From contig RHPI01002090.1 of assembly GCA_009103225.1 (NCBI GenBank), positions 509,863 through 573,862 of the forward strand: a DNA stretch of 64,000 bases, written 5' to 3'. The position numbers and the translations under genes were made by a program. Each line of letters starts with the position of its first letter. Position 1 is the first letter of the stretch. Under the pieces are notes generated by a model. That model ran no database searches. It was not told the origin of the DNA and worked only from the letters and a program-made list of their open reading frames with translations. Source of the stretch: Chlorokybus atmophyticus (lineage: Eukaryota > Plantae > Mesostigma and Chlorokybus algae). Below, piece after piece: positions 2,620 through 62,048 of the stretch.

Positions 2620-4930
2620 ATGACGATTCTCGTGCAGGCCTGGAAGTCGCCAGACTCCGGACTCGAGTCCGCCCCTGGAACTTCACGCGCCTGGAACTTT
2701 CAACTTGAGTCCTCGCCTAGAGCCTTCTCGCGGCCAGTTCTATTCGGAGGGCAAGCTGACCGTCTGCCTGGATGTAAGAATATCTTCAATACTTCACACA
2801 GAGAGCTGCTTGGTGGCTCGCTTTCTGCAACAAGGAGTGGATCAGAAGCTGAAGTCCTTGCAGCCTCTTGTAGAAACCATGCAAGACCCATTGCGACTGT
2901 GGGAACAAGCACAAAGGAATGCAGAGGTACGCTCAACAGTCACATGCATTTCCTTGCAAGAGCAATTTTGTTTTTTTGACGCAGTCTATGTGATACATGT
3001 AGCGTGGCTGCAGGCCTTTATTATTCACCCATACCCCACCCCGCAGGCAAGCCGACATTGCGGAAGCAAGAGCAGATAGACAGAGCTAGGCGGCGATATG
3101 TTGTTGCCAATCTCGCTGTGCATGTTGACTGCATGCACCTCCAATGCATGCGTACCTTTGCTTGCTAGGGTGTGCGTGAGTGTGCGAAGTTGCGCGCGCG
3201 TGCCGAACGAAGTAGGCTGGGTTTGAGCACAGGAGCGCGTGGCCATTCGTTCGGCATTCAACTAATAGTGCATCAATCAGCAATGACGCAGTCCATGCAA
3301 TCATTTGCGCATCAACCAGCAATGCCGCGTGACTGTTTAAAGCCACCGCCTGATGACGGTGTGACGCAGTTGACTATTGCAATTGCAGTGTCGCAAGCAT
3401 GCAGCTAACCCACATGTGATTGGTTGACAGCACCACAGTGCACTAGGTCCTGTTGAAGCTCCTATGCAAGCCTGGATTTAATCCCATCAACTAGTCCTTC
3501 ACTCCCAGTTGCTAATGGGCGCGGCGGCAATGCGGCATTAGTTTAACATGCATGTTGGCCTGTTAAATCCCGACATGTCCATTGGGGCAGTGGCGCATGA
3601 TGTGCCAATGGCTCACGAGCTCCGTGATGAGTCTGCATTTAAGGGTGGCGGGGAGAGTGCACCCAATACCACCTTGTCAGCCCCCATGGCTTCCCTGCAG
3701 CCCACGGGCCATTGAGGTACATTGCTGTCCTTTATGCTTGTGCCTTGGTAACAATACGTCAGGCACTGCATAAGCTTATTTTTTTGTCCTTTGCAACATT
3801 GTGAGCCATCTTTTCCTGGGTCCTATATACAGCCCCCCTTGCTGCATGCACAAGTGGTCTCACCTGCCGCACCTGCTCCCCTTGCAGCCAGAGCGCATCC
3901 ACCTTCCGCGGCACCAGTTCTTCATGCAGAACCATCTCCTCCACGACCAGCACCGGTGATTGCAGGGCAACAATCTTTCTTGCCGCAACCGGCGAGACCA
4001 CAGCATAATGCAACAAACAATGTGGCTTCTACAATTACCTTACCCCACCCGCTGCAAGTTGAAGCCGGCAGTCTGCCCCAAGCTCAGGTAGTTTATCAGT
4101 CACTGTCACTCTTGCCGTCGACAGTTGGACACATTATTTAAGTGTTGTATGCGCATGCAGCAAGGGTCACCACCTGCCAGCGAGTCATTAGAGGAGCTAG
4201 CCGCAACCGGCATATGGCCATCAGTCATGCTAGGTGGCCAGCTCGCCTTATGGGACCACTTCAATGCGCCGACGGATGGTAATTGCCTCTATCATTGTGT
4301 GTTTCGCGCCAGGCCATAGCACAAAGTCGCCTAAATGATCACAAGTGCCCCAGCTTGAGCATATTTTGGGCCATGCTGAAAAGCATGGACGACGACGACA
4401 GGGGGGACGCTCTCCGCAAAATCACCGCCAAGGCTGTCGATGCAGGTGGCGAGCAGAATCTTAGACTTTTGCAGAGCCACCAATGCCGCGGGAGAGATGG
4501 CGCTATTACAAACGACCCACTGCCTGCGACCTTATTGGCTGATGTCAATTGCAACATTGACATAGCCATGGCCAAGGTGCGACAATTGTGCGGAGAAAAG
4601 ATGTGTACGTGGAGCACATGCAGATGACCATGTTTGTCAACAAGTGGGCTTGTTGATTGGCTGCGTAACCATTCAGCGCGAGCATGGGGTGGGTGCCACG
4701 GCCCGGCAGCGCAGTTTGGGTTGGAAATAAAGAAGCCCCCAACTCAGTCTTGGTGGTGGGCAACACTGCCCAGATGAGCCATAAGCACACTTTTTGCTCC
4801 TCAAGCCTGCAAGCACCAAACAATGATCGTGGCCTATGCTTGAAGTGCCACTGGAGGTAACAAACCTAATCGGAGAGTGGCGAAATGGCATTGCCAATTC
4901 CCCGCTACTACCGGATGCGATCCAGGGTGC
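2620..4930 (+). pseudogene. Disrupted gene with OTU-like cysteine protease motif, interrupted at 4930 by the DNMT-Gypsy element
   Basis: FNAPTDGNCLYHCV (about 4260-4305) matches the OTU D-G-x-C-L catalytic loop. A frameshift follows immediately. Upstream there is a Pro-rich exon-like segment (3820-4087). Confidence 0.45.
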
Positions 4931-5169
4931 TGTCGTGCCTGTCATGGTCGAGGGCAACCTTGTCTCGGACAGGCTGCGGAGGAGTGCTAGTGCTGCACGC
5001 ATGCTAGTGCCGTGCATTGCATTGGAGTCATGCAAGCAAAAGACAACCCCCCAATCGTGGGCATAGGCTTGAAGATGAGCCTACGCGGTGTTCAGTGCAG
5101 TGGACGAGCCGATGCCGCTTGCCACCTTTGTGTACAGACTGTGTCGTAGTGCACACAGTCAACAAGCCA
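4931..5169 (-). repeat. Split direct repeat A2 (3' terminal repeat of copy 1)
   Basis: Near-identical to 5822-6056, with a few substitutions and one 4-bp indel. In element sense it begins TGGCTTGTTGAC and ends GGCACGACA. Confidence 0.95.
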
Positions 5170-5819
5170 CTACGATAGGTAGTGCTGTAGACACAGTTCT
5201 TTGCATGAGCGGATAGAATGATACACTGTTAAGTGAGGTGAATGAGTGTGCAACACGTGGATACAACACCCTGACTACTGAAACAACACACCACCGACAA
5301 GCTCACAGCAATTGCAGGCACAGCGCACAAGAGCATGCACCGTGTCTCACGCAGTAAGGGAATTCTTGGCAACTGGGGCAGCGTGCTTCCAGTTCAAGTC
5401 GCTTCACAAGCTCTTTAGAAACATAGTCTTTACTTCTTAGTACTCCTAGTACTCACAGTACTCACTTACAGTGTCACCAGCCAGTCTGGTGACGTGACTT
5501 TCTACTTATACATGTCAAATCATGACGGTGCAGTGCCACGCGGGCACTAGGCCAACGGTCACATCGAGGCCTCATGCGATTTCGGAAATCTCCTAAGACT
5601 CGATATAGCACATGTGTTCTTAACAGACTTACAACTGATCAGCTACGCGCGGTCCCTACAGACAGGTCTATAAAGTAGCCCTAGCTACATGCTACATGAG
5701 TGATACAGTAGCTAGCAGTAGGCTGGGGCTCGCGCGGTCTTCATGCTGGTAGCCCGGGCGTGGGGCTGGGTGTAGGCATGCTTGAGAAGAACTGGCATGC
5801 GAGGGTAGATGGCATGACA
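5170..5819 (-). repeat. Split direct repeat B2 of copy 1
   Basis: Near-identical to 15415-16050. In element sense it begins TGTCATGCC and ends CACTACCTATCGTAG. Confidence 0.95.
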
Positions 5820-5830
5820 GCTGTCGTGCC
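5811..5830. other. Internal end-to-end junction (att-like quasi-palindrome GGCATGACA-GC-TGTCGTGCC)
   Basis: The element's two outer termini are abutted with a 2-bp GC spacer. Perfect 10-bp palindromic core GACAGCTGTC at 5816-5825. Confidence 0.9.
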
Positions 5831-6056
5831 TGCCATGGTCGAGGGCAACCTTGTCTCGGACAGGCTGCGGAGGAGTGCTAGTGCTGCACGCTAGTGACGT
5901 GCATTGCATTGGAGTCATGCAAGCAAAAGACAACCCCCCAATCGTGGGCATAGGCTTGAAGATGAGCCTACGCGGTGTTCAGTGCAGTGGACGAGCCGAT
6001 GCCGCTTGCCACCTTTGTGTACAGACTGTGTCGTAGTGCACACAGTCAACAAGCCA
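5822..6056 (-). repeat. Split direct repeat A1 of copy 1
   Basis: Directly follows the G7 polypurine tract in element sense and matches 4931-5169. Confidence 0.95.
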
Positions 6057-6067
6057 CCCCCCCTGAG
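6057..6067 (-). promoter_or_regulatory. Polypurine tract (CTCAGGGGGGG) of copy 1
   Basis: G7 run about 40 nt after the pol stop codon and abutting A1. The identical CTCAG7 occurs in copy 2 at 22581-22591. Confidence 0.8.
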
Positions 6068-6102
6068 ATTCTGGGGTAGCCCTCTGCTCCAGAACTCAGT
6101 TC

Positions 6103-9100
6103 CTACCGACTGTGTGGGGGACCGTTGATGCGGCAGTCATCGCACCAGTACTCCCACAAGGGTACTGCGTCCAGTGGAGGGTCAAGGCAGTAGCAGTGCA
6201 TGCCTTGATTACAGCCGTCGCATAACATCATCAATGGGTCGTCGTCGGCGCTGCCACACTTCTCGCATCGGGTGCTGCGCAGCGGACGCGGGTGCTGGAT
6301 CTTGGTGAAGCCAGCAATGTAGGGGAGATGACAGGGCGCACAGTTGACCATGTTGTCCTTCATGCGCTCGCCTCGTTGTCCTAACAGGTCCAGTACTCTT
6401 GTGGGGTGCACCCTCAATACCTTGTAGACAGCACGCCCGACGGAGGTATCGAGGGTGTCGCGTGTAGACGCCATACGGTAGACGAAGTCTCCTGACTCGA
6501 AGCGGCGCTCCCGCTCCTTGTAGAAACCACTGCGCACACGCTCGTAACGCAGCGTGTCGCGGTGCTGCGCGATGCGCAGGTTGTTGAAGGCCATGGGGAC
6601 TGTGTGTTCGAACAGCGCACTGCGCACTGTCAGATCATACAACATCTCGTCGGGGTTGTCGAGATTGTCCACCACTCTGTCGACCTCCTGCTGTGCGCGG
6701 AAAGGGAGCAATGGCTGCCTTCCGAACAGTAGATAGTATGGGCTGTACTCTCGCAGGGCTGCCTGCTTGGACAGCCGGTAGCCCATTGCTACCCATGGGA
6801 GGTGATCATCCCAGGTATTCTTCTCGTAGGCAAGGACGTACTTGCGCAGTGCCTTCTTGATGGTCTGCACGGTACGCTCGGCGAGGCCGTCGGCCTGCGG
6901 GTGGTCGCGTGAGGTGCGACGGTGGTCGATGAAGCATCTGTCGATAAGCTTGTCGAAGGCTCCTCTGAACTCCGTACCCTGGTCGGTGATGACTTCAGCG
7001 CAGCTGCCGAAACGTCCGAGTACATGGGAGAGGAAAGCCTGGGCTACTCCCTCACTGCTCTTGTCGGGCAGGGGCACCAGCTCCACCCACTTGGAGAAGT
7101 GCTCGATCATGACGAGGATGTAGCGGTTGCCTCGCGCTGAGGGCGCTAGGTCTCCGAGGATGTCCAGTCCCCAGCGGTAGAACAACCCGGAAATGGGCAG
7201 GGGATGCAAGGTGGCATTGCGCGTGTTGAGGCTGGCGCGAACCATGTCACATTGCTGACAGTTGCTGACGAACTCCCGCACCTGTCTGTGCACCCCATAC
7301 CACCAGTACTGGGTCCTGATCAGACTGACCGTGCGCTTAACACCGAAGTGCCCGAGCTCGGTGTGAAGGGAGGAGATGATGCCTTCACGTGCAGCTGGTG
7401 TGGGGACCTCCTGATCTGCATCTTGTATCCGTCGATACAGCCTGTCGTTGGCCCAGCGGTAACGCTGAGTGCGTTGTCGGACGCGGTCCTTCTCGCGTGC
7501 GCTCATGCCTGCTGGAAGTTGTCCAGTCTGAAGCAGTGCGAGGGATGGCTCGTCCAGCCAGATGTCTTGTCGTGTGTCAGTGGGTGCCAGCTCCTCATCA
7601 TCCACCTCAGGGTCGGCAGCGTTTGCTTCTTCTGATAAAGGATCGGTGGTGGTGATGGCGGGCTCGAGAGCGGGCATGTCCCCGTCTGCTGCTGCCTCAG
7701 CGGTCTGAGTCCTGCGTCCCGAGCGTAGCGCAGCGACAGCGAACATGGTGGCCACACCTGAAGGTGCAGCTGTAGGACCCAACTCATGTCGGGCACCTGT
7801 GGCGTCGTTGGTGCTGAGGTGGGGGTTACGGCTGAGGCCATCCGCATCCCGGTTGGCAAGGCCTGCGCGGTGTTCCACCTCGAAGTCGTACTCCTGGAGC
7901 AGCAGCGCCCATCGTGCTAACTTTCCTGTCAAGTGCTGGTTGTTCATTAGCCACTTGAGGGGTTGATGGTCAGTGACCAGTTGGAACTGCCGTCCAAACA
8001 GGAAGGGTCGGAAGAAGGAGATGGCCCACACTGCGGCGAGACACTCCCCTTCGTAGCTGCTGTAGTTGGCCTCAGCACTGTTGTTGCTGCGGCTGGCGTA
8101 CGACACTACGCGCTCCTTTTTGTTGTTGTCATGCTGTACGAGCACGGCCCCCATGCCGAGCTTGCTCCAGTCTGTGTGCAGAATGAACGACCTGGTGTAG
8201 TCAGGGCGTTGCAGAATGGGAGCTGTGGTGAGGCGGAGCTTCAGCTCCTGAAAGGCCTCCTGTTGTGCCTCCTTCCACAAGAACTCGGTGTCCTTCTTCA
8301 GTAGTTCGTTGAGAGGCCTTGCGATCTTGCCAAAGTCTTTGACAAACCGGCGGTAATAGTTGGCAAGGCCGAGAAAGGCCCGCAGCCGCGTGAGGTCTGT
8401 GGGGGCAGGGATAGCCACCAGGGTCTCCACTTTGGCCTGCTGTACGTACACACCATGGGGCACAATCATGTGTCCTAGGTAAGGTACCTTGCGGGTGAAG
8501 AAGGTGCACTTGTCAGGGTGCACCGTCATCCCGACTTCCTTCAGCCTCAGTAGCACCTCTTCGATGTGCTGGAGATGCTCCTCATTGCTGTGACTGAAGA
8601 TGAGGATGTCGTCGATGTAGCAGCGCGCGAAGTCCAACCCCTTGAGGGCTTTGTCCATGACGCGCTGGAACTTGGCCGGAGCGTTCTTCAGTCCGAAGGG
8701 CATGACCTTCCACTGGTACAGCTGCCGGTTTCCCCAGAAGGAAGTCTTGTGCTTGTCCTCCTCCTTGATGGCGATCTGGTTGTACCCTTGGCGCATATCC
8801 AGGATACTAAAGACCGTGCATTCTCCTACATCGTCAAAGATGCCTTCTGTGGTAGGCATTGGATCCCTGTCCTGCTTGGTCTTGTTGTTGAGGGGGCGAT
8901 AGTCGCCACACATGCGCCGGTCTGTCCAGTTGCCTGCTGAATCTTTCTTCAGGGGCATGACGGTCGCGGCCGCAAAGTCCGATGTGGACTCCTCGATCAG
9001 GCCTGCATCTAGCAGCGCCTTGCACCTCTGTTCCACCAAGTCTTCTTCTAGCTTGGAGAGGCGGTACTGTCTTCTGAACACCGGTTCGGTGTCCACTAGT

Positions 9101-9411
9101 TCAATGTCCATCTGGTATGCTGAGCAGATGCCCAGCTCCTTCACACTGAAGCTGAATTGGCTCCTCCACTTGTTGAGGAGAGCCTCGAGTTGCTCTCGAG
9201 TCTGGCCTGTGGCCAGCGGTTCCAATGGCGTGGGACCACGAGGTAGCGTTGGCGACCACTGGAATGTCTTCCACAGTGACTGCTGCCTGCTCCTCCATGT
9301 GGGCGGTCTCGAGGGCGGTGTGTGCTGCTTTGGTCTCTGAAAAGCGAGCAATCCACCCCCCAGCCAGGTGTTCGAGCTCCTGGAAGGACACATGGCGGTC
9401 CTGGAGAGCAA
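6103..9411 (-). CDS. pol: Pol: reverse transcriptase, RNase H, DDE integrase, C-terminal PHD finger
   Basis: RMCGDYRPLN, MPFGLKNAP, YIDD (8608-8619), LHTDWS/SYASR RNase H, HTELGH...CQQC zinc motif, WGLD/TDQG/GLAER DDE triad, C4-H-C3 PHD (6133-6267). The true reading frame starts at about 9222, after a +1 frameshift. Confidence 0.95.
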   Translation of the reverse strand: MLSRTAMCPSRSSNTWLGGGLLAFQRPKQHTPPSRPPTWRSRQQSLWKTFQWSPTLPRGPTPLEPLATGQTREQLEALLNKWRSQFSFSVKELGICSAYQMDIELVDTEPVFRRQYRLSKLEEDLVEQRCKALLDAGLIEESTSDFAAATVMPLKKDSAGNWTDRRMCGDYRPLNNKTKQDRDPMPTTEGIFDDVGECTVFSILDMRQGYNQIAIKEEDKHKTSFWGNRQLYQWKVMPFGLKNAPAKFQRVMDKALKGLDFARCYIDDILIFSHSNEEHLQHIEEVLLRLKEVGMTVHPDKCTFFTRKVPYLGHMIVPHGVYVQQAKVETLVAIPAPTDLTRLRAFLGLANYYRRFVKDFGKIARPLNELLKKDTEFLWKEAQQEAFQELKLRLTTAPILQRPDYTRSFILHTDWSKLGMGAVLVQHDNNKKERVVSYASRSNNSAEANYSSYEGECLAAVWAISFFRPFLFGRQFQLVTDHQPLKWLMNNQHLTGKLARWALLLQEYDFEVEHRAGLANRDADGLSRNPHLSTNDATGARHELGPTAAPSGVATMFAVAALRSGRRTQTAEAAADGDMPALEPAITTTDPLSEEANAADPEVDDEELAPTDTRQDIWLDEPSLALLQTGQLPAGMSAREKDRVRQRTQRYRWANDRLYRRIQDADQEVPTPAAREGIISSLHTELGHFGVKRTVSLIRTQYWWYGVHRQVREFVSNCQQCDMVRASLNTRNATLHPLPISGLFYRWGLDILGDLAPSARGNRYILVMIEHFSKWVELVPLPDKSSEGVAQAFLSHVLGRFGSCAEVITDQGTEFRGAFDKLIDRCFIDHRRTSRDHPQADGLAERTVQTIKKALRKYVLAYEKNTWDDHLPWVAMGYRLSKQAALREYSPYYLLFGRQPLLPFRAQQEVDRVVDNLDNPDEMLYDLTVRSALFEHTVPMAFNNLRIAQHRDTLRYERVRSGFYKERERRFESGDFVYRMASTRDTLDTSVGRAVYKVLRVHPTRVLDLLGQRGERMKDNMVNCAPCHLPYIAGFTKIQHPRPLRSTRCEKCGSADDDPLMMLCDGCNQGMHCYCLDPPLDAVPLWEYWCDDCRINGPPHSR

Positions 9412-9419
9412 AGCACATT

Positions 9420-10370
9420 TCCAAGTACCACACCATGCTGTTCTGATCCATGGCGCGCCCTAACAACTGACATTGTTGACTGGTTGTCAGCGTGGAGCCT
9501 GTGATGCTGCCTGGAAAGAATCCCATAGCACGCTTGCGCTCGCGGGCATTGGGTTCTTCCAGCTGTCCAGTGTTGGAGTCCAACACCATGCCGTCGCCTC
9601 CATTGCGGAACGCGTAGGAGCCTGGATAGGATACAAGCGTGGGTAGTGCGCGGCGCGGCTGACCAGGCTGGTTGCACTGGTAGAAGTGGTGGCGGTCACG
9701 GCGTGTGACCGGCTGCGCTGTGCGTCCAGGGTCCAGGATGTCATCGACGACGAGATTTCGTGGCCGATTGCTGTATAGGTACTCTGCCAGAAATAGGTCT
9801 TCCACAATGGCCAGGTTGGTCCACTTGGCGCGGACGCGGCGTGCACGAGAGCCATGACGTGCGGCGTTGATTTTGAGAGGATGCCCCAGCAAGGAGCATA
9901 CTTGCCGATAGGCCTTGGCGACGTGAAGCCGCTTGTCATCCTCGGAGTGCACATTCTCGATGATGTACCCCAAGGGCCTAGCGATCTGACTGGTCTGTAG
10001 GAGTATGATGACTTACATTAGCTCCCAGAACAGCTGTGAGCGAGGATCAGAGAGCCCTTGGCCTCTGCCTGCCCTGGAGTGCCCTTTACACTCCCATCCT
10101 GCTATCAGCAGGTCAACGTTGCCGACTGCCTGCAGGTGATCCTTGGTAATCCGGCGGATGTCCTGCGGTAGAGCCTTCTGGCTCCCTTGCAGTGCCGACA
10201 GTGGTAGCTGCTGCGGGTAGCGCTGGTGCAGCTGTCGTAAATGATGGCTCAGAGCCTCCTGTGCCTGAGGGTCAGGGTGACAGGAGAGGTACTTGGTGAC
10301 TGTTGTTCCTGTGTTGAGGACAGCCGCAAGCCCACTGCCTATGCCTCCGAACAGCTCCAGCACGGTGATG
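9420..10370 (-). pseudogene. DNMT3-like C5 cytosine methyltransferase domain within the polyprotein (one in-frame stop at 10013-10015)
   Basis: Motif I TVLELFGGIG, motif IV DLLIAGWECKGHS (Cys codon 10088-10090), motif VI IIENV (9950-9958), motif VIII ARRVRAKWTNL, motif X LLGRAMD. ORFs 10013-14527 and 9101-9973 are in the same frame. Confidence 0.88.
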
Positions 10371-13300
10371 CCTTGTTGTCGGCGGAACATGTGGAACTCC
10401 ACAACTCCCGTAGCTATGTGGTACTGCTCCTGCACTGTAGCCTGGTCTTTGTAGACAGGGAAGTGTGCAGTGAGCTGAGGCCTGGTCAGCAACATGTGTG
10501 CTGCTACTTGTGCGCTCCAGCGACGCTCGGATGGCTCCTGAAAGGCCACTTCTTTGGTGACAGCCTCCTGAGACTCATCGTACGGTGTAGGAGAGTCCTC
10601 TTCAGCGTTTGGGCTCGGGCTCGATCTCGTTGCAGTTGTCCTCGGCTGCGTTCGGGCACGAGGCACACGTGAGCTTTTTGTAAGACTGTAGGTGGCTGCT
10701 GCAGCCGATATTCGTTGCAAGCGGTCCTTGGCCACCTGTTCGAGAGGTAGGAATCCCTGCTCCTCTCCATCGTCCTCATCCCAATGCGGTCGAAACCATG
10801 CCTGCTCAGTCCAGCGGTCCATCCCCATGCCGACAGGGAAGTTGCAGTCCTGTCCCAGCAGTAGGTCAAAGGACCCGGCATCGGTGACCACACACCGTTG
10901 TACAATCTCGGTGCTGTGGGAAGGGTTTAGTCCTGTGAGGCGAATGCTCACAGCCTGCTTGGTAAGGCCGAGCACCTTGTCGCGGTTGCCGGTTGCGGTG
11001 TCCAGCTGGTAGGGACAGGGAAGCAGCTCAGCGCTGGTGATGCCGAGATCTCGTGCGAGATAGCGCCCAATGATGACAGGCTGTGCTCCAGTGTCCAGCA
11101 TCACGCGTTTGGGTGCCCGCCCATTGACGGTCACGTGCTTGCCTTGGTTGGCGATCATGGCTGCATTGGCGTTGATGCGCAGCCTCTTGCAGCGATGGAA
11201 CCTCTTGCGTGGAGAGACTGTTGCTTTACTCTCATCTGCGGGGCCTGACCGTAGGGCAGCCAGGGCTCCTCTGCCTGATGGATCTTGTGGGCCTCCTTGT
11301 CCTCGGCTTTGTCCAAACCGTCCTTGTCGCGGTTGCTGGTACACGCGTGGTGGCCTAGGCACAGGAGGTGCTGCTGCAACCTGTCCAAGTGGAGGTGCAG
11401 GAGGGTTGACCCTCTGTGCAGCTGTTGTCATGCCAGGAGGAGTGGCCAGTGGCTGTGGCGGGAACCCTGGAGGACCTGGTGTTTGCGGGACTGCCTCTCG
11501 TGCAGCCTGCTCCTCTGCATAGGTCCATCGCACAGCATGGGCTGCCTCTGTGACTAGTGTACCTTCCCATGTCGCCGTCGCATTGTTGTCCACGTCTATA
11601 TAGCGATGGTTATGAGGCATGGGCTGCAGGTACACTGCGCGTAGGAGCCGCGCCCTCATGTCGTGAGTGACGGTAGGCACCCTGAGGATCCCTGCCATGT
11701 AAGCATCCCATCTGCCGTTGACCACTCCCACTTCCAGCACTGTTATTGCTCGTGTGCGTACAATGAGGCGGGTCTCTGGCTGTTGGACATGCTGCTCGTA
11801 AGCAGCGGCGATGCGCCTGCGCTGACGTCCTGCCTCCACTCCTGGCAAACTCAGTATCGCCTCCAGAGCTCCCTCCAGAGTGTCAGTGGCGGCGGAAGCC
11901 ACTTCATCATAGGCTTGCCGTATGGAGCGAAGGAATGCGTCCACCCACGCTATTCTGGCGCCGAAAGCGAACAACGGGACTGCGGGATGGTTGGTGACCA
12001 GCCACGTCACTAACCGTGCGCGTGCCGCGTTGCCATTGTCTCGCATCCCAAGCATCTGCCGAAGTCCGATGCCTTCTTGCCGATGCAGCATGGTTGCTTG
12101 TCGCACCAGAGCAGTGCGTAGTTGTTGCTCTCCAACCAGTCCTGCTCCATCTCTTTGTGTACACCCTTGTAGTGTAAGGTAGCCCCTCCCTGGCTCCCTT
12201 TGGTCCTCAGGTAGATCCTCCACCAGCGCAGGCAGCAACGGGGCGATCACCCCCCTCGTTTGTTGAGCCAACGCCCTCGCTTGGTCAGAGTTGGTCTCGA
12301 CGAAGAGCGGAGTGGTGCTGGAGGATGGATCAGCAGTTGGTGACTGAGGTATTGGTGCACGTGTAGCTTCAAGAGCTTGTTCACGTGCAGCAATGGCGGC
12401 AGCTTGATCCTGTCGCCAATGATATGCTTGTTCCAGTGCGTGGTAGCGCTGATGAAGACGAGCGGTTGTTGAAGGTCCGAGTGCTTCATCAGTGCCCAAA
12501 GGCAGGTCGGCTGCGTCGGCGATGCGCTGCTGGACGGCGTCTTGGCGGTCCCGATACGTGTCCAACGGGCTGGGTTCAAAAGCGGTGGTTGGCATGCGTG
12601 CAGGCTGGCGCGGGGCGGTCTGCATGTTGTTGTGCAACGCCCAGAACAGCTGCAGAGCCAACTCCAACACTACAGGTGGGCTGTAGCTGATCAAAAACAC
12701 CCTGTCACGCATCGGAGGTGCAGTGCCAGCAAGGATCTCATCTTCTAACTGGTGTTGAGTGAGTGCTGGAAGGGTGTGAACCTCTGGTAGCGGGAAGACG
12801 CGATCATCGCGGGCGACACGCGTGGTGCGCTCCCCCCCCCGACCGAAGGCGATGGTAGTGGGGTCTGCTCCGCGCAGGATGGTTTCCCATGCTCGTTCAG
12901 CTTGCTGACCAGTTGGGACAGCCTGAGTGACGTCGAGAGCGGGCAGAGTGGCTGCGCGCGTCGCTGCAGAGACAGCGGGCTCGACGATGGCCATTGTGGC
13001 AGTTGCGACGGTATCGGTCGGTGGTGCGAGAGTTGTCTTAACGCCTACGGACAGAGGCATTGCTGCAGTGGGAAGTGCACCGCCCACTGGTGCAGATTCG
13101 GTAGTGATGGCGGCTGCTGCCAGTGTGCTCACCAGCGTCGGCGTCACGGTGCCCACCGGTGTACCAGGTTGTGGTGCAACTGGAGTGGGTACCGCTGACG
13201 TTGGTGGAGCCGACGTTGTAGCCGGTGTGGCTGTTGCTACGGAGGCAGCACCACTGGTGGCTTCGGAGGAGGTGCCTGCTGATGTTGTTGCAGCTTCCCC

Positions 13301-15200
13301 TCGTGCTCGTCGTGATGGTTGAACGCGGGACGGAGTGTTCCTGTCTCTCTCGCGTTTTGCAGCCATCAGCGCCCATCGGGCCGTGTAGCAGGCGCGGTAG
13401 TCCTGCTCCTTGTCTTCCTCCAAGCGTGCTATATGTGCCATGAGGGCTGCCATATGGTCATCAGCTGGTGGGTTGGCTGAAGCCTTGGCGGCAACAGCAG
13501 CAGCGCGCGGACGTGTCTCTGGTCCCTTACGCTGAGGAGGTCTGTTCTTCCCCCTGTAGCCTTGCTCTTCCTTGCGAACACTGGCGTTGTTGTTGTTGTT
13601 ACTGCCACCAGCGTTGTTGCTGTTGTGGGCTCCAGTGTTGTTGCTATTGTAGCCACTGAAGTGGTTGCCAGTGTGGCCCCCAGTGTTGTTGCTGTTGTAG
13701 CCACTGAAGTTGTTGCCAGTGTGGCCTCCAGTGTTGTTGCTGTTGTAGCCACTGAAGTTGTTGTGGTTGTAGCTGTTGGCGGGCCTCAACTCTGGGAACT
13801 TGAGCCAGCAAACTGACTCCAAATGACCAGTCTTGTGACAGTGGTCGCAAACCAAAGTTGAGTATTCTTCGGTGCACTCCTTTTGGTAGTGCCCATGCCG
13901 TCCACAGCGATGACACAGCACAGGGGCAGCAAGTGCAGCATGAGCTGACCGTTTCCCTTTGTCGCGTGCTGGTGGAGCGTCCCGGCCACGGTCGCGGCGA
14001 GGAGGCTCAGTTGTCGTGCTGACTACAGGCCGTGCGGCGCTGCGGTTGGTGTCCAGCACTGCCTTCTCATACACCAAGCGCTTGTGGATGGCTTGTGCAG
14101 TCTCGAAGGCTTCTTTGAGGGTGTAGCCAAGGGGCCTGCTGTAGTTCAGAGTCAGGCGTGTGGACTCGCTCAGAGCAGCATCCAACTCATTGACGTATAT
14201 CACTGCAGCAGCCTCCTCACTAACAATCTTGTAGTCAGTGTCCTTCAGCAGACCTTCCAGTCTGGAGTACAAGCGGAGGGGATCCTCATTGGGCTTGCGT
14301 CGGAAGCGTCTCAGCTCCTCAACCTTGCTGGTGGTCTGAGGAGGGAAGGTACGGCGCAGGGCAGCGTACAGGTCCTTGAGTGGAGAATCAGAGATGGCAG
14401 CACCTATGGTGATGGCTGGTGCGCGCAGTGCTACTGACCCGAGGGTGAAAGCGCTGCCTCCTGCTCGAGAGCCAGGTGTTACTGGAGGTAGAGGAGTACC
14501 CCACTCTGCGGCTGCCGCTTGCTGCACAGCTCTTTATTCCTCAATTATAATGGCAAAACGGTCAAGGATGCGGACTCGACGTGTGGCCTCCTTGGACTCA
14601 ACTTCTGCAGGGGTCAAGTTGACAAGTACCAACTCTGGTTCCTCCTCCTCTGCCTGCTTGAGAGCTGCAGCTATGGTCAAGCCTGTTACTGCAATTGAAG
14701 TGGCAGGTGGAACGACACCTGCTGGACGGTGCAGGGATGCAGATGCTATGGTGCTAGCAAGCTCGCCATAGCCGTCTACTCGATGCAGTTCAGCAACGGA
14801 CTTCCAGACATCGTGTGCTTCATGATCAAGATACTGAGCAGCAATGTGGAAAGAGATCTCATCTGACTGATCCGTTGTTCTTCAGTGCTTGCTGCCGCAT
14901 CTTGGAGTGGAACTTGATGATGAACTCATCCAGCGAGGTGGTGCCGGCACGTCCGGAGAAGCGCAGGGATGTGGTTGAACTGGAAGATTCCATCTCGTCG
15001 TCGTCGCTGTCCGATGATAGTGGAGAAGTTGGATGACGAGGAGTAGAGTGGAGCGGGGTGAAGCTGGAGATGGAGCGCGAGCCTCTGCTGCTGCGGTCGA
15101 TGCTTCCGTCACTGGTCCGCTCGTAGGTGAGGTTGGTGGTTGGGCTCCAACTGCCGAGGTCACCCTCGTCTATTGGGGAGAACGGGGTGGGCCTGCTCAT
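10013..15200 (-). CDS. gag: Gag (two CCHC zinc knuckles), long accessory region, aspartic protease and N-terminal half of the DNMT; disrupted near the N-terminus
   Basis: CHRCGRHGHYQKEC and CDHCHKTGHLESVC; MLDTGAQPVIIG protease (about 11087-11095). Upstream ATG at 15200 is joined via a frameshift at about 14862 (…NGSV/DEISFHIAAQYL) and a TAA at 14534-14536. Confidence 0.85.
13600..13775 (-). repeat. 48-bp tandem repeat (about 3 copies) encoding NNFSGYNSNNTGGHTG in gag
   Basis: Direct repeats visible in both DNA and translation. Confidence 0.9.
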
Positions 15201-15389
15201 ACAGCTGGTCCAGAGGTGAAAGGGTAGAGTGCTTGTGCTCGACCGTCTATCCTGATGCTGTTACCACCCAACACACTAGTGCTTGTGCGCACTATGTGAT
15301 GACAATGATAACGAATGCCCAGCGATGTATCCCTGGGTGCAGACTGCACTATCTGATGCAGATTGCAACACACTCACTTGTGCAAAGAG

Positions 15390-15404
15390 GGTGACACTGT
15401 AAGT
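15390..15404 (-). promoter_or_regulatory. Candidate self-priming primer-binding site (ACTTACAGTGTCACC in element sense)
   Basis: Lies just inside repeat B1 and is the perfect 15-nt reverse complement of 15695-15709. Confidence 0.75.
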
Positions 15405-15414
15405 CAACAAGCCA

Positions 15415-16050
15415 CTACGATAGGTAGTGCTGTGGACACAGTTCTTTGCATGAGTGGATAGAATGATACACTGTTAAGTGAGGTGAATGAGTGTGCAACA
15501 CGTGGATACAACACCCTGACTACTGAAACAACACACCACCGTCAAGCTCACAGCAATGGCAGGCACAGCGCACAAGAGCATGCNATAAGGGAATTCTTGG
15601 CAACTGGGGCAGCGTGCTTCCAGTTCAAGTCGCTTCACAAGCTCTTTAGAAACAGAGTCTTTACTTCTTAGTACTCCTAGTACTCACAGTACTCACTTAC
15701 AGTGTCACCAGCCAGTCTGGTGACGTGACTTCCTACTTATACATGTCAAATCATGACTGTGCAGTGCCACGCGGGCACTAGGCCAACGGTCACATCGAGG
15801 CCTCATGCTATTTCGGAAATCTCCTAAGACTCGATATAGCACATGTGTTCTTAACAGACTTACAACTGATCAGCTACGCGCGGTCCCTACAGACAGGTCT
15901 ATAAAGTAGCCCTAGCTACATGCTACATGAGTGATACAGTAGCTAGCAGTAGGCTGGGGCTCGCGCGGTCTTCATGCCGGTAGCCCGGGCATGGGGCTGG
16001 GTGTAGGCCTGCTCGAGAAGGACTGGCATGCGAGGGTAGATGGCATGACA
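15415..16050 (-). repeat. Split direct repeat B1 (5' terminal repeat of copy 1, contains promoter)
   Basis: Matches 5170-5819. Homology extends 12 nt (15403-15414) into the start of repeat A. Confidence 0.95.
15709..15741 (-). promoter_or_regulatory. TATA-like box (TATAAGTA, 15741-15734) and predicted transcription start near 15709
   Basis: TGTATAAGTA is conserved in both families. The GGTGACACTG block lies 32 nt downstream in both (copy 2: 23106 to 23138). Confidence 0.6.
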
Positions 16051-16590
16051 GTGCTGCGCCAACGCCTCAGGCCTTCGTGTGCTAGGCAAGAAGTAGCCGA
16101 CTGTTTTGCACCTCCTGCCTCCCCTCAACCACAGCCACATGCTCGCAATAACAATCCTGCACCCTCCCTTTATGCTGCGGAGACTCACTTGCCACCGAAC
16201 TCTAACCATCCGGAGGCATCTCCATCAAGAAACAGCGGTAGCTCGCCCTCTCCCTCTAAGCTTGCCACATTGATCCCAGCCTGTCTTGTTGGTAAGATTG
16301 ATCGAGGTGTCCTGAAAGCTGCGCTGAAAGACAAAGGCTTCATGCTCGACCTCATGAAGCAACATGAGGTTGTTGAGGAACGGGAGGCAACCAACAAGCG
16401 CAAGGCTGTGGAGCAAAAAGATAACGCGTTACCTCTTCTGAGTGACAATGCCACGGACAGCGCCTGCCAGGTTGTGCAGGTTGACAAAAAAAAAAGGAAG
16501 AAGGTTGTTGGAACAAGGGACGCTGACATGAACAAAAAAGCAAAGGTGAGGCATCATTACAATGTAGTTACAATAAGCACAGCGCCTTGA
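16051..16590 (+). pseudogene. Probable continuation of the sequence interrupted by copy 1 (Pro/Ser-rich, then Lys-rich exon-like segment)
   Basis: An open frame runs across the reconstructed empty site (…YYRMRSRVLRQRLRPS…) and ends at a GTGAG donor-like site. No domain recognised. Confidence 0.3.
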
Positions 16591-21700: not shown

Positions 21701-22591
21701 CCTGTTGGACAGATGCTACATCGATCATTGCCATACTTCACGTGACCACCCTCAAGCCGACGGTCTCGCCGAGCGGACGGTGCAGACTATCAATAAGGCA
21801 CTCCGCAAGTACGTGCTGGACTATGAGAAGACCATCTGGGACGACCACCTTCCGTGGGTGGCTCTTGGCTACCGTTTGTCGAAGTAGGCGGCGCTGCGCG
21901 AGTACAGCCCATACTACTTGCTGTTCGGGCGTCTGCCGTTGCTTCCCTTTCGTGCACAGCAGGAAGTAGACCGTGTGGTGGACAACCTCGACGATCCCGA
22001 CTGGATGCACAATAACATCACCACACGTGCCACGCTGTTCGAGCACACCGTCCCGATGGCCTTCCACAACCTGCGCATCGCACAGCACCGTGACACTCTG
22101 CGCTACGAGCGCGTGCGGAGCGGCTTCTACAAGGAGCGCCAACGGCGGTTTTTAGCAGGTGATTTTGCCTACCGCATGGCAGCCACCAAGAACACGCTCG
22201 ACACCTCCGTGGGCCGCACCGCCTACAAGGTACTCAAGGTGTACCCCACAGAGTGCTGGACCTTCTTGGTCAGAATGGCGAGAGGTTGAAAGACAACATG
22301 GTGAACTGCGCGCCATGTCACCTCCCTTACATAGCAGGCTTCGCGCGCATCCAGCAACCTCGCCCCGCCCGCAGCACACGCTGTAAACGCTGCGGCAGCG
22401 CCGGCGATGACGCACTCATGATGCTCTGCGATGGCTGTAACAAGGTCCTGCATTGCTATTGTCTGGAGCCCGCATTGGACGCAATACCCATGGAGGAGTA
22501 CTGGTGCGACGATTGCCGCATCAACGGTCCTCCTCACCTGCGTTAGCAACTGAGCTCTGGAGCTGGAACCTCCCCAGAAGCTCAGGGGGGG

Positions 22592-22827
22592 TGGCTTGTT
22601 GACTGTGTGTCCTACAGCAAAGCATGTACACTAAGTAAGACACCGCCTCCACATGTCCGTGTTCAGCAACAGTGGAGTGGCTCCACCAAGCATTCCTCGC
22701 CATACAAGCTGGGTTATCTTTTACTTTTGCCACAGGTTATAAGATGTTGCAGCAGCAGGATAAGCACGCATGACTTTCCCTGCAGCGGCCCGATACAGTG
22801 TGACCCTCGACTTCCCCCGACCCGACA
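22592..22827 (+). repeat. Split direct repeat A1 of copy 2
   Basis: Follows CTCAG7, starts TGGCTTGTTGAC, ends CGACA, and is repeated at 23421-23720. Confidence 0.93.
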
Positions 22828-22829
22828 GC

Positions 22830-23420
22830 TGTCATGCCTGGTGCCCACACATACCAGCCTTCATCGGGCATGTCTACATCAAAACCGTCGCCCGACCTAC
22901 CGACATACCAACGCGCGCGCGTCCCTGACCAGTAGCTATGTCATGTCTTCAGGGTAGCTCACGACCAAAGCCCACATAGGCACCGCGCGTAGCTGTTCAG
23001 TTGTGAGTTCAGTGATAAGTAAATTTTATATCGAGTGACAACCGCTGTGGAAATAGCCTCGACATGACCATTAGCTTATGTTTTGAACAGTCATGATTTG
23101 ACTTGTATAAGTAGTCACAGTGTTCACCGGATCAGCTGGTGACACTGTGAGTGAGAAAGCTAAGAGCTTGTGAAACGACTTGAACTACGAACACGCCATC
23201 TCGGTTACCAAGAACCCCCTCACTGTGTGAGAGCTTGTGCATGCTCGTGCGTGCATCGTGCTTGTCATCGCCGTGGGCCTGGTGTGCCTAGTTGCAGTGT
23301 GCTTGTTGGCATCAGTCAGGGCATAATACCCACGTGTTGCTTGCTCATTCACCTCACTTAACAGTGTAACACATTTTTCGCTCATGCAAAGAACTGTGTA
23401 AACAGCACTACCTATAGTAG
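22830..23420 (+). repeat. Repeat B2 of copy 2
   Basis: Starts TGTCATGCC after the GC spacer. Shares conserved blocks with copy 1 B (ACCGCGCGTAGCTG, GTCATGATTTGAC, TGTATAAGTA, GCTGGTGACACTGT, GACTTGAACT) and ends CAGCACTACCTATAGTAG. Confidence 0.88.
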
Positions 23421-23720
23421 TGGCTTGTTGATTGTGTGTCCTACAGCACAGCATGTACACTAAGTAAGATACCGCCTCCACATGTCCGTGTTCAGCAACA
23501 GTGGAGCGGCTCCACCAAGCATTCCTCGCCATACAAGCTGGGTTATCTTTTACTTTTGCCACAGCAACAGTGGAGCGGCTCCACCAAGCATTCCTCGCCA
23601 TACAAGCTGGGTTATCTTTTACTTCTGCCACAGGATATAAGATGTTGCAGCAGCAGGACAAGCACGCATGACTTTCCCTGCAGCGGCCCGAGACAGTGTG
23701 ACCCTCGACTTCCCGCGACA
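23421..23720 (+). repeat. Split direct repeat A2 of copy 2, with an internal 69-bp tandem duplication (23493-23630)
   Basis: Matches 22592-22827 plus a 69-bp duplication. Followed by flank GCAT. Confidence 0.93.
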
Positions 23721-24654
23721 GCATACCACGCAGCCCGGCAGTCGCGGGTGCCGTATGTGATGGCCACTTATGGCCTGGCGCGTGTGATGCCGGCCGGCCA
23801 ATAGTTGAACCTTAACGTCAAGGTGGTTTATGTTAGTACTTCATTTGCAATAATAACCACATAACTACACACTAATCGTCTTTTTTAGTAACGTTCTACT
23901 AATGTTCAATTATTAAACAATTTGTGTAAGTTTGTATTAACGCTATATTACTGCTACCAAGGTGACTTGGGGAGTTTCTTAATATAAGCACAAATCAAAG
24001 ACTTTACAAGTCAGCGTTTGTTTGGCTATCATAGCAAAGGAATCTCTCTCAATCACTGCCGCAATTAAATGGCAACATCGTCGCAAAATGTTTCCCCTAT
24101 CGGCCGACTAAATATTGGCAACGGCCGTGCACCTGAGGATACTCAGTTAGACTGTCGTGGCTCAGTCCACCTGTAATCTCGATACAGACACCTGAGTATA
24201 ACTTCCGTTACTATCAGGCCCTAACCATTATAATTCAGTCCCTATTAGGTGACTGTGCGTAACTAACAGGTGCTTGTTAGTTACGCACCGGCAACTGTAT
24301 GGTAACTGAGCTCGACTGTAAGGCACCGGTCAATTACACATCAGTCACCTTCAGGTATTTATGCGTAACTAACTGGCGATCGTATGCTGCCTAAGCGTGA
24401 CTGACATGCACCTCATAGTACCTGCCGTTATTGATGTGTACCTTAGAAGGTACCTATCAGTACCATTCTATCATGATTAGATATTACACGTGCGTGTCAT
24501 GCTGTGAACGTGATTATGAAAAAACGCATCTGATAATATAAAGTTAGTCTGTTACAATTGTAACGTTGCTATGCGCAATGTAAACTACACTAAGCTACAA
24601 CAAGTACCTGCAGTAGTAGTCTACCACTACTACTGCAACTATCCTTATACTATT

Positions 24655-25680: not shown

Positions 25681-28614
25681 CGACAGACCCAACAGTTCAG
25701 CAGTGACATGTCAGGCAGGGTTAGGTAGGGTCAGGCACCCGGCAGTCCCTCAATCCTTGGTCAGTCACCGTGCAAAATTTGCTATGGTAGACACACGTTC
25801 CTTTACTTAGCCATATATCGACATTGACCATCATTCATGCGAGCTTGCATTATATAGGGATGCCCTTTTAGACCTGGACAACCCAGGTTGTTTAAAATCC
25901 AACGGCTTGTAGTCGCCGCTCAATTAATGCTACGCATACTGCCGTGCAAGTTGCACGATGCAGTCCGGCAGTCGCAGGTGCTTTTGTCGTGCCGTGGGTT
26001 GTGCCGGCCGGCCGACCGGCATTCAAAGTCATTTACACATCCCCAACCAATCAACCCGCCCACTCAGCCGCACCCCTAGTTATCGCTGTAGCTTTGCAAC
26101 TTCAATCAAATGCATGGGTAATGCTTATTAACGCTCGTTTGGCTAAAGTCCATGTTTGGTGCCCCTTTTACATTAGCGGTTAATCGTTGATGTTAAGTGG
26201 TAGGGTGTAAATTGGTAGGGTGTGAACAGTTAAAGTAAGGGTTAGAAAGACGGCATGTGTTTAAGGTATGGGGCCCGCTCCGACCTCGCATTGCAAAAAA
26301 TGCACAAATTCTAACCGCTAACTGTTGCTCAACTTGGCGTCAAAACGTCGACGGTTGGACTCCGTCGTTGAAATGTCGTTGTTGCAGATATGCCATTGAG
26401 ATTGTCGAGCATTTTTTCAATGATTGGCATCTTTACGCCTGTCTTGGGCCACAGTGTGTAACACCGTTGCGAACCCATTTGATTACAATCGTGCGCAATC
26501 AAGCGGTAGCCTAATGACGCAAATTATCGTTTGGTTGTATCTTAACGTTAAGGTGTTTTTTGAGGCTAATATTATGGATTGAATATGACCATTTTGCTAC
26601 CCACTAGGAACCTGCCAACGTAATGTGGCAGGAACGTTACTACTTAATTTGCCACCTCAATAAGTGTGTTACATGTCATATGGGCCATATGCAACATAAT
26701 GCCGGCATATGTGCACCGTGCAGATTGTGCGCATTATTGATATTTATTTGCAGATAGTTTGAGCAGTTGCATGACGTGGGGATGTGCTTTGGACGCTCGA
26801 GATCTATTTCTTGCAGATCGAACGGCTGATAGTTGATAGACGCCGCCTAGCCAATGAGCGGCAGGTGAGCCGCGCATACCGCGCAGCCCGGCAATCGCGG
26901 GTCCCCTATGTGATGCGCTTGGTGGGGTTTGCGTGTGCCCGAATGCCGCCCCGCCCAATCAGCCGCACCGCTCGTTGGGTTGCCTACCTATGTAATGCAA
27001 ATTGCAATGTGTTGCTTAAGCCCCAATAACGACTGGTATTACCAGTTAAACCGGCTGAGTTTGTCTGCGTGGGCCTAGCACGTTTATTACACTGATAGCA
27101 ACGTGCACGCCTACATCCATCTGTGCATGATCGAAAATATGAGATTGTCGGACGCTGACCAGGGCAGAACTCTGCACGGTTGCATGCACTTTATGTGAGT
27201 ATGTGCAGCCGTACAGTAGGCCCTAGGTGTAGCCGTACAAGAGACCTCTCATTGCCACCAAAAAGTATCAGCCGCTACAAGCCCGGTTGGCGCACTGACA
27301 ATGCTTCGTGGTGCTGCGTCAGCACGCGCCCGTCAAAACTACGGCACGCGTCGACAGGGGACTCAGCATTATTGACGAGCCGAGTGTCCTCAGCTGTCCG
27401 GCGGATGTCCGATGGGCGTCTGGAAACACAGGTCTGTACGCTATATACATGATACTGAAGGGACTGTACCTAGCCAATTCAGTTCCTTCCTTTCCGCGTG
27501 CACGTGCTGTGCGCTCACCATCGCCGATGCTCACGTTATGCTGATGGAAGCGCACGCTCCAGCCCTTGGAAACGTCAGGTGGACACTCGCACGTTGCTGA
27601 TACCACGCGCAGATAACGCACGCACACACAAGCTCCGAGCTGGCGGACGATCGGGGCTTTGGTCCCGCGCTCGCCCACAGGCTGCATGCCTCAGCACTCT
27701 CCGCCCACCGCCGCCCCAGCTGGTGCGTGTGCCACCAGCATCGCTTGAGACTTGTGCTCAGCGGCCTGGTGAGGTGCTGCTGGAAATCGAGGCAGACAAG
27801 AAGCTGCAGGGGCCAAAGCAGAGGGTGTGCTGAGTGACTTCTGCTGCGGCTGGCGCGTCGCCGCCGAGCTGGTGGGCGGCTTCTTGGGTGCGTGTATTGA
27901 GCGCTGCTTAGTAGTAGCGCTGGCCGATCGTTCTTGCTGGCGCTGTGATGTCTTGCTGAAAGTCTTGAACGTGTATGCAGTAGATGGCGTCGTTAGTGCA
28001 CAGTTCAGCTTTGGCTTTGCTGACAACTTGCTTAGTTTAGGTCATGCGTGTAATGTTCACTGGGCGAGCTACTGACAGTCATGCACCAACTCCGGTGCCG
28101 GGAGCAGCAGGGTCAACAGCTCTGTGTTTGCCGACTGCATTGCTTGAAAGCAGTGCTGTCGGCTTTGTGGGTTGTTGGCTTTGTGGCTTTGGCGTGCAGA
28201 AGCCAGCTTCTCACATGCTGTTGTTCAACCAGCTCAACTCAGTTTATAGAAGATATGTGACGTGTCCGCTACTTCAGGGGACACGTGTGCTTTTTGTCGT
28301 AGCTTTAGAGGTGCGCTGCTCAAATGCTGGCTGTAAAATACTGGCTGTGAACTTGTACGTTTTCTGCTCAACTGCCAGCAGCGTGCTGCACACAGGTTGT
28401 TCATTGCACTGAGTGTGCATTCGCTACGTCGATATTTTCCAAATACTCCGTTCAGTCTTCGAATTCTCCACGCGTAGCAGTGCACATGTTGAATGATTCG
28501 CCTGCTGCAGGTGTGGTCGGTGGCAAAATGGTGTGTACACTATGACGACAGCATCCTGACATTGAGTTGCTGGTAGACAAACCCCTCCTTGGCTGGGTTT
28601 TTCCATATCACTGC

Positions 28615-51752: not shown

Positions 51753-52541
<789 letters not shown>

Positions 52542-54154: not shown

Positions 54155-55443
54155 TGTTACGCCGCGCGGAGGGGAAATCACACCAAGAACTATGCACAGT
54201 GATCACACACTTTTACATGTAGTGATTGTACACTTCCTTAATCAACTTTCATTGTATGAACAATTACTTGGTAACTTAAGGGTTATGGTCACCTAGCCTA
54301 GGTACCCCTAACTTAGCCCCAAAAGCCCGGAGCTCAAGTCGTACGGCGGCTACCCTCCACTCGCGACTGGCTCCTTTTTTATGGCGAAATTCATCGCCTT
54401 GAGCTTTACTAGAAACTATCTTGGCTAAGACCTACTTGGTCCAAAGCCCTCTACCAGATCCCCATTCACTCACCCAAGTAATTAGTTCAGTTCACTTGGC
54501 ATTAGTTTTCACTGGCATTCTGCAAAATGACCAATAATGCGAATCCGCGATTTTTGAGCTTGCGGCCATGGCAGACGGCGCTGCCATGCGCTGCGTATTG
54601 GCACACGCGGGAGGGAGCCAATGCCTTAGCCGATTTTCTGTCGCGACGTCGCGTCGCGAAGTGATCTATTAGTTGATTCACCAGTGAATCAACTTTAGTT
54701 CACTACCTTGTCGGTATTATGAATCACTCTACTAGTGAACTAATTTAGTTCACCAATGATTCACTTTTGGCTCTCTCTTCTATTAGGGTGATTCACTTAG
54801 TTCACTTACGAACCCCTAGTGAACTAATCCAGTTCATGTTCGTAACTAAATCAATGAACTAATTTAGTTCACTTACGAACCCCTAGTGAACTACTTTAGT
54901 TCATGTTCGTAACTGAACTACTGAACTAATCTAGTTCACTATGTTGATTCACTTCGCCGGTGAATCAACCCCTTTGCAAACTCATTTCGCGAAGTCCTTT
55001 TTGTTCACCCTAGGTAGGCTACTTCGCTCTAGTCAACTGATCCAAATAAGCCGCCTTGGATTGGCCTAAATGAACCTTATAATTACACATGCTTTTTCCT
55101 ATGATGTTTCACGCGATTGGCCCCATAAGCCCACATCACGTTAATAAATCATTATATTAAAGCCATGTGTTTTTATTTTCCTATTTAAGACGCCCATACA
55201 TTCATGAATAGGGTAATTCCTAGTCAACCACTTCTGATTAGATGCATGTAAATGCTCTAACTAGCCAGGCCTATAATTAGCGATGCATTGCACTCGTGTT
55301 AAAGCTCAAACACAAACACACGCATTCAAAGCTTGTACAACAAACCAAGATAATCCAACCAAGGTTTATTAAACTTTTGTCTCTCGCTAATTATACTTAT
55401 ATATACACTGTACATGACCAGCTATAGTAGCTAGGCCGTAACA
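54155..55443 (-). repeat. 3' LTR of chromovirus 1
   Basis: TGTTAC…GTAACA ends, preceded by the PPT in element sense, matches 60677-61961. Confidence 0.96.
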
Positions 55444-55602
55444 ATGCCCCCCCTTTAGTTATTGAGCGTCTCTGCTCAATTTCTTTCTCCACGCTTTCCA
55501 ACCTAGGAAAACAAGCCATGATCAGTAACTTGATAGGTCAAAACGTGGAACTACTTCTAAAGGCGGAAAATATATATTTTCAGAAATGGACCTACCTGGA
55601 CT

Positions 55603-55866
55603 TCATCTTTGGGCAACCGTTAGCTCCCTCCAATATTTCTTTATCAGAAGCGGTGATCGCATGTTAGGTTCGTCAACCCATTCACATGCCTCGAACGGAT
55701 GGCCCTTCCATTTCACAAAGAAACTGGGAGATCTGCCTTTCCGGCCTTTGTGGGTTATTATACCCTCAACTTCATACTCCCTTCTATAAACATTGGGGGG
55801 GGGGGGGGGGGGCTGCACCGACCCATCCGAGTGATAGGTTCTCAATAGCGAGGCATGAAATACCAT
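55603..55866 (-). CDS. Chromodomain at the integrase C-terminus (frameshifted from the integrase)
   Basis: YEVEGIITHKG…FFVKWKGHPFEACEWVDEPNM…LIKKYW. Confidence 0.88.
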   Translation of the reverse strand: MVFHASLLRTYHSDGSVQPPPPPPNVYRREYEVEGIITHKGRKGRSPSFFVKWKGHPFEACEWVDEPNMRSPLLIKKYWRELTVAQR

Positions 55867-59344: not shown

Positions 59345-59353
59345 CCCGCACCG

Positions 59354-61961: not shown

Positions 61962-62048
61962 GTGTTAGCGATAAGCTAACACTACATTAAGGCCATAAAG
62001 GCCCTAATACGGCTCAATTGGCTGTTTATTACCCGTTGGGACCCTTAT

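Follow-up and report, generated by a model that had tools for sequence, protein, structure and literature searches.

The split-direct-repeat elements PAT, TOC1 and Ngaro encode a tyrosine recombinase and no DDE (aspartate, aspartate, glutamate) integrase, and a circular intermediate has been proposed for them. A repeat arrangement of this DIRS-like kind, A-coding-B-A-B, is given for a Gypsy element, KnitGypsy-Dnmt3 of Klebsormidium nitens, in the legend of Fig. 4c of de Mendoza et al. (2018; PMC5890265), and according to the legend of Fig. 6A of Craig et al. (2023; PMC9940879) the left long terminal repeat (LTR) of Gypsy-7a_cRei from Chlamydomonas reinhardtii is without the final 8 bp that the right LTR has. 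The layout described here is to that extent already in print, as two figure-legend remarks that carry no mechanism. A 64,000-nucleotide stretch of the alga Chlorokybus atmophyticus (contig RHPI01002090.1 of assembly GCA_009103225.1, positions 509,863 to 573,862; hereafter the window) contains a Ty3/Gypsy retrotransposon of 11120 bp, element 1 (4931–16050, minus strand), arranged as B-internal-PPT-A-GC-B-A, where PPT is the polypurine tract. Its effective LTR, A-GC-B, contains a CA-NN-TG palindrome whose two halves form the inserted ends of this element. This feature is real, and the mechanism set out below is inferred from it. A literature search found no paper on the junction or on its mechanism, subscription papers, theses and book chapters lying outside its reach.

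Element 1 begins with the letters TGTC and ends with GACA. Its left end is the 5′ B repeat (15415–16050; this and the following features are on the minus strand), which starts with TGTC. At the other side, the polypurine tract AGGGGGGG (6057–6064) is followed directly by the internal A repeat (5822–6056), which the GC spacer separates from the 3′ B repeat (5170–5819), again starting with TGTC and containing a TATA-like box and the putative transcript start; the terminal A repeat (4931–5169), ending with GACA, forms the right end. Self-comparison gives a divergence of 2.1% for the B pair and 0.9% for the A pair. The element is flanked by GCAC, read on the element strand, at 4927–4930 on the right and 16051–16054 on the left. 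Contigs from three of the four runs examined (X1, X2, X3) carry the empty site, with 4925 joined to 16050. Because the 11124 bases skipped equal 11120 + 4 and GCAC stands at both flanks, the target-site duplication is 4 bp, short as is usual for Ty3/Gypsy elements. Run contigs also span the junction with no difference listed, and of 12 positions checked, 2 are common to both repeat copies as against the run copies. The loose ends in the second read layout, in 16 of 40 rows, include no new insertion flank.

The palindrome GACAGCTGTC (GACA-GC-TGTC) occurs in the 64 kb at 5816–5825 and 22824–22833 only, two copies against the 0.066 expected from base composition, and both fall where repeat A meets repeat B in a Gypsy element. 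The first, which has no strand of its own, consists of the end of A, the 2-bp spacer (5820–5821) and the start of B, and is the putative site at which two attachment (att) ends abut. The initial annotation had placed such a junction within 5811–5830, with a second copy at 22824–22833, and had described it as the outer ends abutted internally; both positions are correct, and the TGTC and GACA termini of element 1 are indeed the letters of the two junction halves.

The coding content is that of a Ty3/Gypsy element, with the domain order gag, protease, reverse transcriptase, RNase H, integrase. A pol frame (6103–9459, minus strand) encodes reverse transcriptase, RNase H, an integrase of the DDE type with an H2C2 zinc finger (D766, D826, E861), as Ty3/Gypsy elements have, and a PHD finger. 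A second frame (10013–14533, minus strand) encodes a gag zinc knuckle, an aspartyl protease and the start of a C5 cytosine methyltransferase domain (PF00145, E 1e-5, partial), and the polyprotein is interrupted between the two. Behind the gag zinc knuckles, 24-bp tandem repeats at 13588–13787 encode an Asn/Gly-rich stretch. What departs from Ty3/Gypsy is the absence of two full LTRs: the polypurine tract adjoins A, the left end is B, and A is displaced to the far right. The repeat order is like that of PAT, TOC1 and Ngaro, from which element 1 differs by its DDE integrase, its polypurine tract and its 4-bp duplication. No tyrosine recombinase was matched in 66 of the 70 frames of at least 70 amino acids that overlap element 1, the other four running into its flanks, so that the defining combination of DIRS, PAT and Ngaro elements, a tyrosine recombinase and no DDE integrase, is not found here.

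Relatives of element 1 come from charophytes, chlorophytes and bryophytes. In a quick, midpoint-rooted tree of 81 reverse transcriptase–RNase H rows, from which loci below 75% coverage were omitted, element 1 falls into a clade of 66 rows (SH-like approximate likelihood ratio test, SH-aLRT, 98) with proteins of Klebsormidium, Closterium, Pleodorina, Marchantia and Calypogeia; the clade leaves out element 3, the canonical Gypsy element of the window, and the placement of one locus, L078, is unsure. Element 1 shares with KnitGypsy-Dnmt3 both the split direct repeats and a C5 methyltransferase domain; for the latter element a pol with a Dnmt3-type domain is described beside the other Gypsy domains (PMC5890265), and Klebsormidium proteins stand in the same clade. 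The comparison is one of descriptions, and the published description, in the parts consulted, gives no junction, target duplication or mechanism. Between the second D and the E of the integrase core lie 34 residues in all seven clade proteins that matched the pattern (10 tried), and 35 in all five matching proteins from outside the clade (8 tried).

The junction is conserved among these relatives, as the initial annotation had required of its GC-spaced form. Of 173 loci the best 80 were taken, and 32 of them reach the end of pol with at least 500 bases behind it. In 10 of these 32 the pattern GACAnnTGTC is present no more than 2 kb behind pol, against 0.69 expected from dinucleotide shuffling; two of the ten (L012 and L056) are one locus, and L065 has its true junction after a first match that is off target. 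The 22 loci with no match include junctions with variant arms (L034, L077) or one decayed arm (L010, L029, L051) and ends that have no B. The spacer is always 2 bp long; its letters vary, with AT, GT, AC and TA besides GC, so that it is the length and not the dinucleotide that is constant. The more distant L078 (6057–14038) has a TGG-type primer site, the arrangement PPT-TTACA-TA-TGTAA and the duplication CTAC, and directly shows the layout with an A of about 5 bp. A pattern search of viral contigs gave 38 matches, none of them a relative.

The same junction is found in curated families of C. reinhardtii, which were judged by eye from snippets and two parts of Dataset S15 of PMC9940879 and stand outside the tree. 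Four of them (Gypsy-14a, 14b, 18 and 22) have the full order B..PPT-A-GC-B-A, with about 21 nt of A missing at the B-A join of Gypsy-14b, and the internal entries of 7a, 7b, 8a, 8b, 9a, 9b and 9c finish, ahead of the LTR, in a polypurine tract, 6–9 bp and CA-GC. For Gypsy-15, 16 and 17 the internal entry stops at the purine tract, with no CA-GC ending. The 8 bp missing from the left LTR of Gypsy-7a imply the same split layout with a tiny A, in an element that is active, encodes a PHD finger and has made 86 new insertions of 15.4 kb (PMC9940879). The Gypsy 7/8/9 group differs from element 1 in the length of A (6–9 bp against 235 bp) and in its primer sites, which begin with TGG and resemble tRNA sites, where element 1 has a putative self-primer; for Gypsy-7a and its relatives the consulted parts of PMC9940879 offer no mechanism. 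In the same dataset, the Gypsy-21_cRei_I consensus has successive CA-NN-TG junctions at one end, and the internal entries Gypsy-5a and Gypsy-24 begin with GC-TGT right behind the LTR.

That the effective LTR is A-GC-B, as first annotated, is supported by the surroundings of the repeats: the polypurine tract adjoins A, so that plus-strand DNA would begin at A, and a TATA-like box and the putative primer site are situated within B or after it. A 15-mer in B (15695–15709, minus strand), which lies 32 nt beyond the first letter of TATAAG (15741–15736) and is the putative transcript 5′ end, is complementary to a sequence 10 nt behind the 5′ B (15390–15404, minus strand), the putative 15-nt primer-binding site, a match reached in 0 of 300 shuffles. 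Such complements also occur in L060 (12 nt, 0 of 300 shuffles) and L068 (10 nt, 2 of 300), with 14–19 nt matches in L003, L008, L032 and L034 and a match seen by eye in Gypsy-18; none above chance was found in L012, L020, L066, L078 or the control element 3. The element 1 family therefore probably self-primes as Tf1-type elements do, judging from a predicted transcript start. The putative primer site resembles that of the self-priming LTR elements Tf1/Sushi, Tcn1 and TAR in complementing the predicted transcript 5′ end; those elements differ in having been collected as canonical two-LTR elements, the survey having chosen TG/CA-ended 5′ and 3′ LTRs (PMC6317226). The window holds no tRNA gene, and self-priming was preferred to the reading of a 10-mer as a tRNA primer site. 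Given the 15-nt self-priming complement, the 10-mer would be a terminal redundancy and not the primer site. Of the linear complementary DNA (cDNA) first envisaged, primed from a primer-binding site and the polypurine tract, the A-GC-B unit thus stands and the choice of primer probably does not. The shared stretch TGGCTTGTTGACT, with which A starts and which recurs behind the 5′ B, exists as claimed and is 13 nt long, not 10–12. One of its places (15402–15414, minus strand) would mark the terminal redundancy of the linear cDNA, and the B-A join (5157–5169, minus strand) holds a single copy. Relatives join B to A with no such redundancy, and the shared 10–13 bp is accordingly corrected to a property of the element 1 family and no general requirement.

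Inserted copies show which ends are used. All nine normally oriented left ends (element 1, L012, L016, L020, L025, L060, L066, L068 and L078) begin at B directly behind flanking DNA, a count from which L014 and L015 were omitted as the start of their B is missing. The eight copies with both ends all carry 4-bp duplications, six perfect and two with one mismatch; two of the eight were assembled from overlapping contigs (L020+L013, 97.7%; L029+L030, 99.5%). In a bryophyte-like family, 19 distinct 3′ ends comprise 6 of the B-A form, 11 in which the flank follows PPT-A, 1 truncated and 1 fold-back, and none of the 19 has the canonical linear layout with its 3′ end at B. The six B-A joins of this one family fall into three classes (four with a shared A, one with a shared C and one with a 17-nt filler). 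The junction is thus precise while the B-A join varies through microhomology, filler and deletion.

These observations very probably call for an end-joined substrate that is cut at an internal att site, whether the joining makes a circle or a longer linear molecule, and it is reasonably probable that joining of the cDNA ends makes a circle, whose upstream CA-NN-TG palindrome the DDE integrase then opens. In such a cycle, the transcript would begin in the 5′ B and finish in the 3′ B. A self-primed minus strand and a plus strand primed at the polypurine tract would give a linear A-GC-B-internal-A-GC-B that carries TGGCTTGTTG(ACT) at each end and has an att site at neither. Host end-joining would then close the ends, through the 10–13 bp redundancy here and through 1–4 bp of microhomology or filler in relatives. 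Integrase would nick after each CA, leaving 2-nt 5′ overhangs to be removed by repair, and strand transfer with a 4-bp stagger would yield B-internal-A-GC-B-A. Under the standard scheme of reverse transcription the B-A join is absent from such a transcript and must be remade in each cycle. The product B-internal-A-GC-B-A alone has a promoter and primer site on the left and a second R on the right, and so it alone could replicate again. The initial annotation had derived the B-A join from closure of the cDNA through a shared terminal sequence: that the join is made anew after reverse transcription, with the marks of end-joining, holds up, and the need for shared redundancy does not extend to the relatives. 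A staggered cut at CA/NN/TG fits both the ends and the eight duplications.

A parallel had been drawn to insertion sequences. In IS3, IS30 and IS21 a DDE enzyme acts on ends abutted in a circle 2–3 bp apart; that circle is made from DNA by the transposase, and its spacer comes from the donor flank. In element 1, by contrast, the spacer is encoded and would be copied by reverse transcription, and the parallel to IS3 and IS30 is good for geometry and for nothing beyond it. Foamy-virus integrase is the closer one: in vitro it cuts a CA-AT-TG circle junction on both strands, leaving 5′ AT overhangs (PMC1180852), so that a palindromic CA-NN-TG with a 2-bp spacer is common to both systems. The integrase of HIV-1 cuts its circle junction as a tetramer (PMC1905944), and 2-LTR circles are described as products of non-homologous end-joining (PMC12786077). 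In retroviral 2-LTR circles, though, the att-att site is the ligated cDNA end and the route is optional, whereas the LTR of element 1 has it internally encoded, and the B-A join, where ligation would take place, is a different and imprecise site.

One copy is most simply explained by a circle opened at an inverted junction. L029 and L030 (2755 bp overlap, 99.5%) form a single copy between CATT/CATT flanks. Its left end consists of the A half of the junction in inverted orientation; on the right, after a fold-back at the primer site, it ends in the B half, inverted as well. The two halves of one junction type have acted as ends, in permuted order. In L029 3243–3878 with L030 4941–5190, the primer site behind the 3′ B continues as the reverse complement of B, and the fold-back fits a retained self-primer.

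Several observations weigh against a circle. All of the evidence comes from inserted copies. Since the two junctions of a 2-LTR circle are equal, an unbiased cut should also give the permuted copies predicted by the initial annotation, with a left end behind A-GC; there are none among the nine left ends, an unexplained bias. The predicted B-internal-A copies are common, four of them complete and with a 4-bp duplication (L025, L060, L068, L020+L013), but they do not discriminate, as they can form with no circle, from linear cDNA nicked at both junctions, by later A-A recombination or by assembly collapse. Of the last, L010 and L011 are a possible example, being 99.4% alike and different in form. 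In the old family, A repeats diverge by 0.05–0.12 within elements against a median of 0.095 between them, which gives no sign either way of a common origin of the paired repeats. In L003, L008, L032 and L034 the primer site, instead of A, comes after A-GC-B, and L066/L067 is tandem-like; either assembly collapse or genuine tandems would account for these loci. A second cDNA or some later rearrangement may have supplied the inverted left piece of L030, since this piece resembles its own forward copy no more closely than it does the others.

The alternative that survives best dispenses with a closed circle and is possible, if unlikely. Here an extra strand jump would end reverse transcription, or two cDNAs would be joined head to tail; in the former case the plus-strand end would re-anneal to the left end via microhomology and be extended, and integrase would pair the start of B with the end of A. 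The inserted product is the same, the 13-nt redundancy suits annealing, a transient non-covalent circle has been described for mdg4 and IAP (PMC12786077), and the tandem-like L066/L067 exists. It could also account for the finding that in 9 of 9 cases the left end is the upstream junction. At the B-A join, however, filler and deletions resemble end-joining ligation and not templated extension, and dimers require two cDNAs in one place, in families of low copy number.

It is improbable that the transposing unit is B-internal-A, cut at both junctions from linear cDNA or a 1-LTR circle, with tandem products now and then supplying the extra GC-B-A, which would be retained solely for restoring replication. 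This would suit the 11 of 19 3′ ends with PPT-A-flank and the four complete B-internal-A copies with 4-bp duplications, but alone it does not produce the B-A join, and the Chlamydomonas families seen in the curated library, including Gypsy-7a with its 86 insertions, have the full form. More probably this is a side route giving replication-incompetent copies. That the locus is a DIRS/PAT-type structure integrated by its own or a borrowed tyrosine recombinase, or an assembly artefact, is hardly credible and already largely refuted: the repeat order is that of split-direct-repeat tyrosine recombinase elements (PMC5890265, legends of Figs 1e and 4c) and the window contains N letters, one of them in the 5′ B, yet the scanned frames hold no recombinase domain, the DDE triad is present, the 4-bp duplications are found in all eight copies, independent assemblies and the curated library show the same layout, and the run contigs span the junction.

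Elsewhere in the window, the second palindrome belongs to the 3′ end of element 2 (22585–23720, plus strand), which has the layout PPT-A-GC-B-A of element 1: a polypurine tract (22585–22591), A (22592–22827), GC (22828–22829), B (22830–23420) and terminal A (23421–23720), the left part with the 5′ B being absent from the window. Its terminal A contains a 69-bp tandem duplication (23493–23633). The GC behind this A is target DNA, because the right flank (23721–23762, plus strand) is a host repeat that recurs at 26874–26915. The proposal that GC is part of the right end and the duplication 2 bp was rejected on this ground, and it is also contradicted by the bryophyte-like family, no 3′ flank of which begins with GC. 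The library consensus of Gypsy-18 ends in GACA+GC, for which a target preference in algae would account. The targets of elements 1 and 2 begin with GC (GCAC, 4927–4930; GCAT, 23721–23724), as does the Gypsy-18 tail, and a 2-nt GC overhang could pair with such targets, which are not seen in the bryophyte-like family. The control element 3 (54155–61964) is a canonical Gypsy element with 1.29-kb TG..CA LTRs 3.0% apart and a D,D35E integrase; an inverted partial copy of it occupies 62078–64000, and a long AG microsatellite containing an N lies at 51973–52277.

Annotation tools that require two full LTRs mis-draw or overlook elements of this kind, and forms with a short A, such as L078, would be taken for ordinary LTR elements. 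Whether LTR circles are true integration precursors is an old open question; in the literature consulted in part, they are mostly treated as by-products, or the cleavage of their junction is shown in vitro only. The balance leans slightly towards a branch of Gypsy elements in the green lineage, from Chlamydomonas to bryophytes, that has its att sites in mid-LTR and integrates only via an end-joined circle. This clade would be a natural case that requires the circle or end-joined form, with the att-att site, inside the LTR, shielded from imprecise joining. As Gypsy-7a_cRei is active in laboratory Chlamydomonas and has the same junction, the question can be tested by sequencing alone. If the proposal is true, host end-joining is obligatory for these elements, 2-LTR circles are a productive intermediate and not a dead end, and the branch includes the most active LTR element of laboratory Chlamydomonas.
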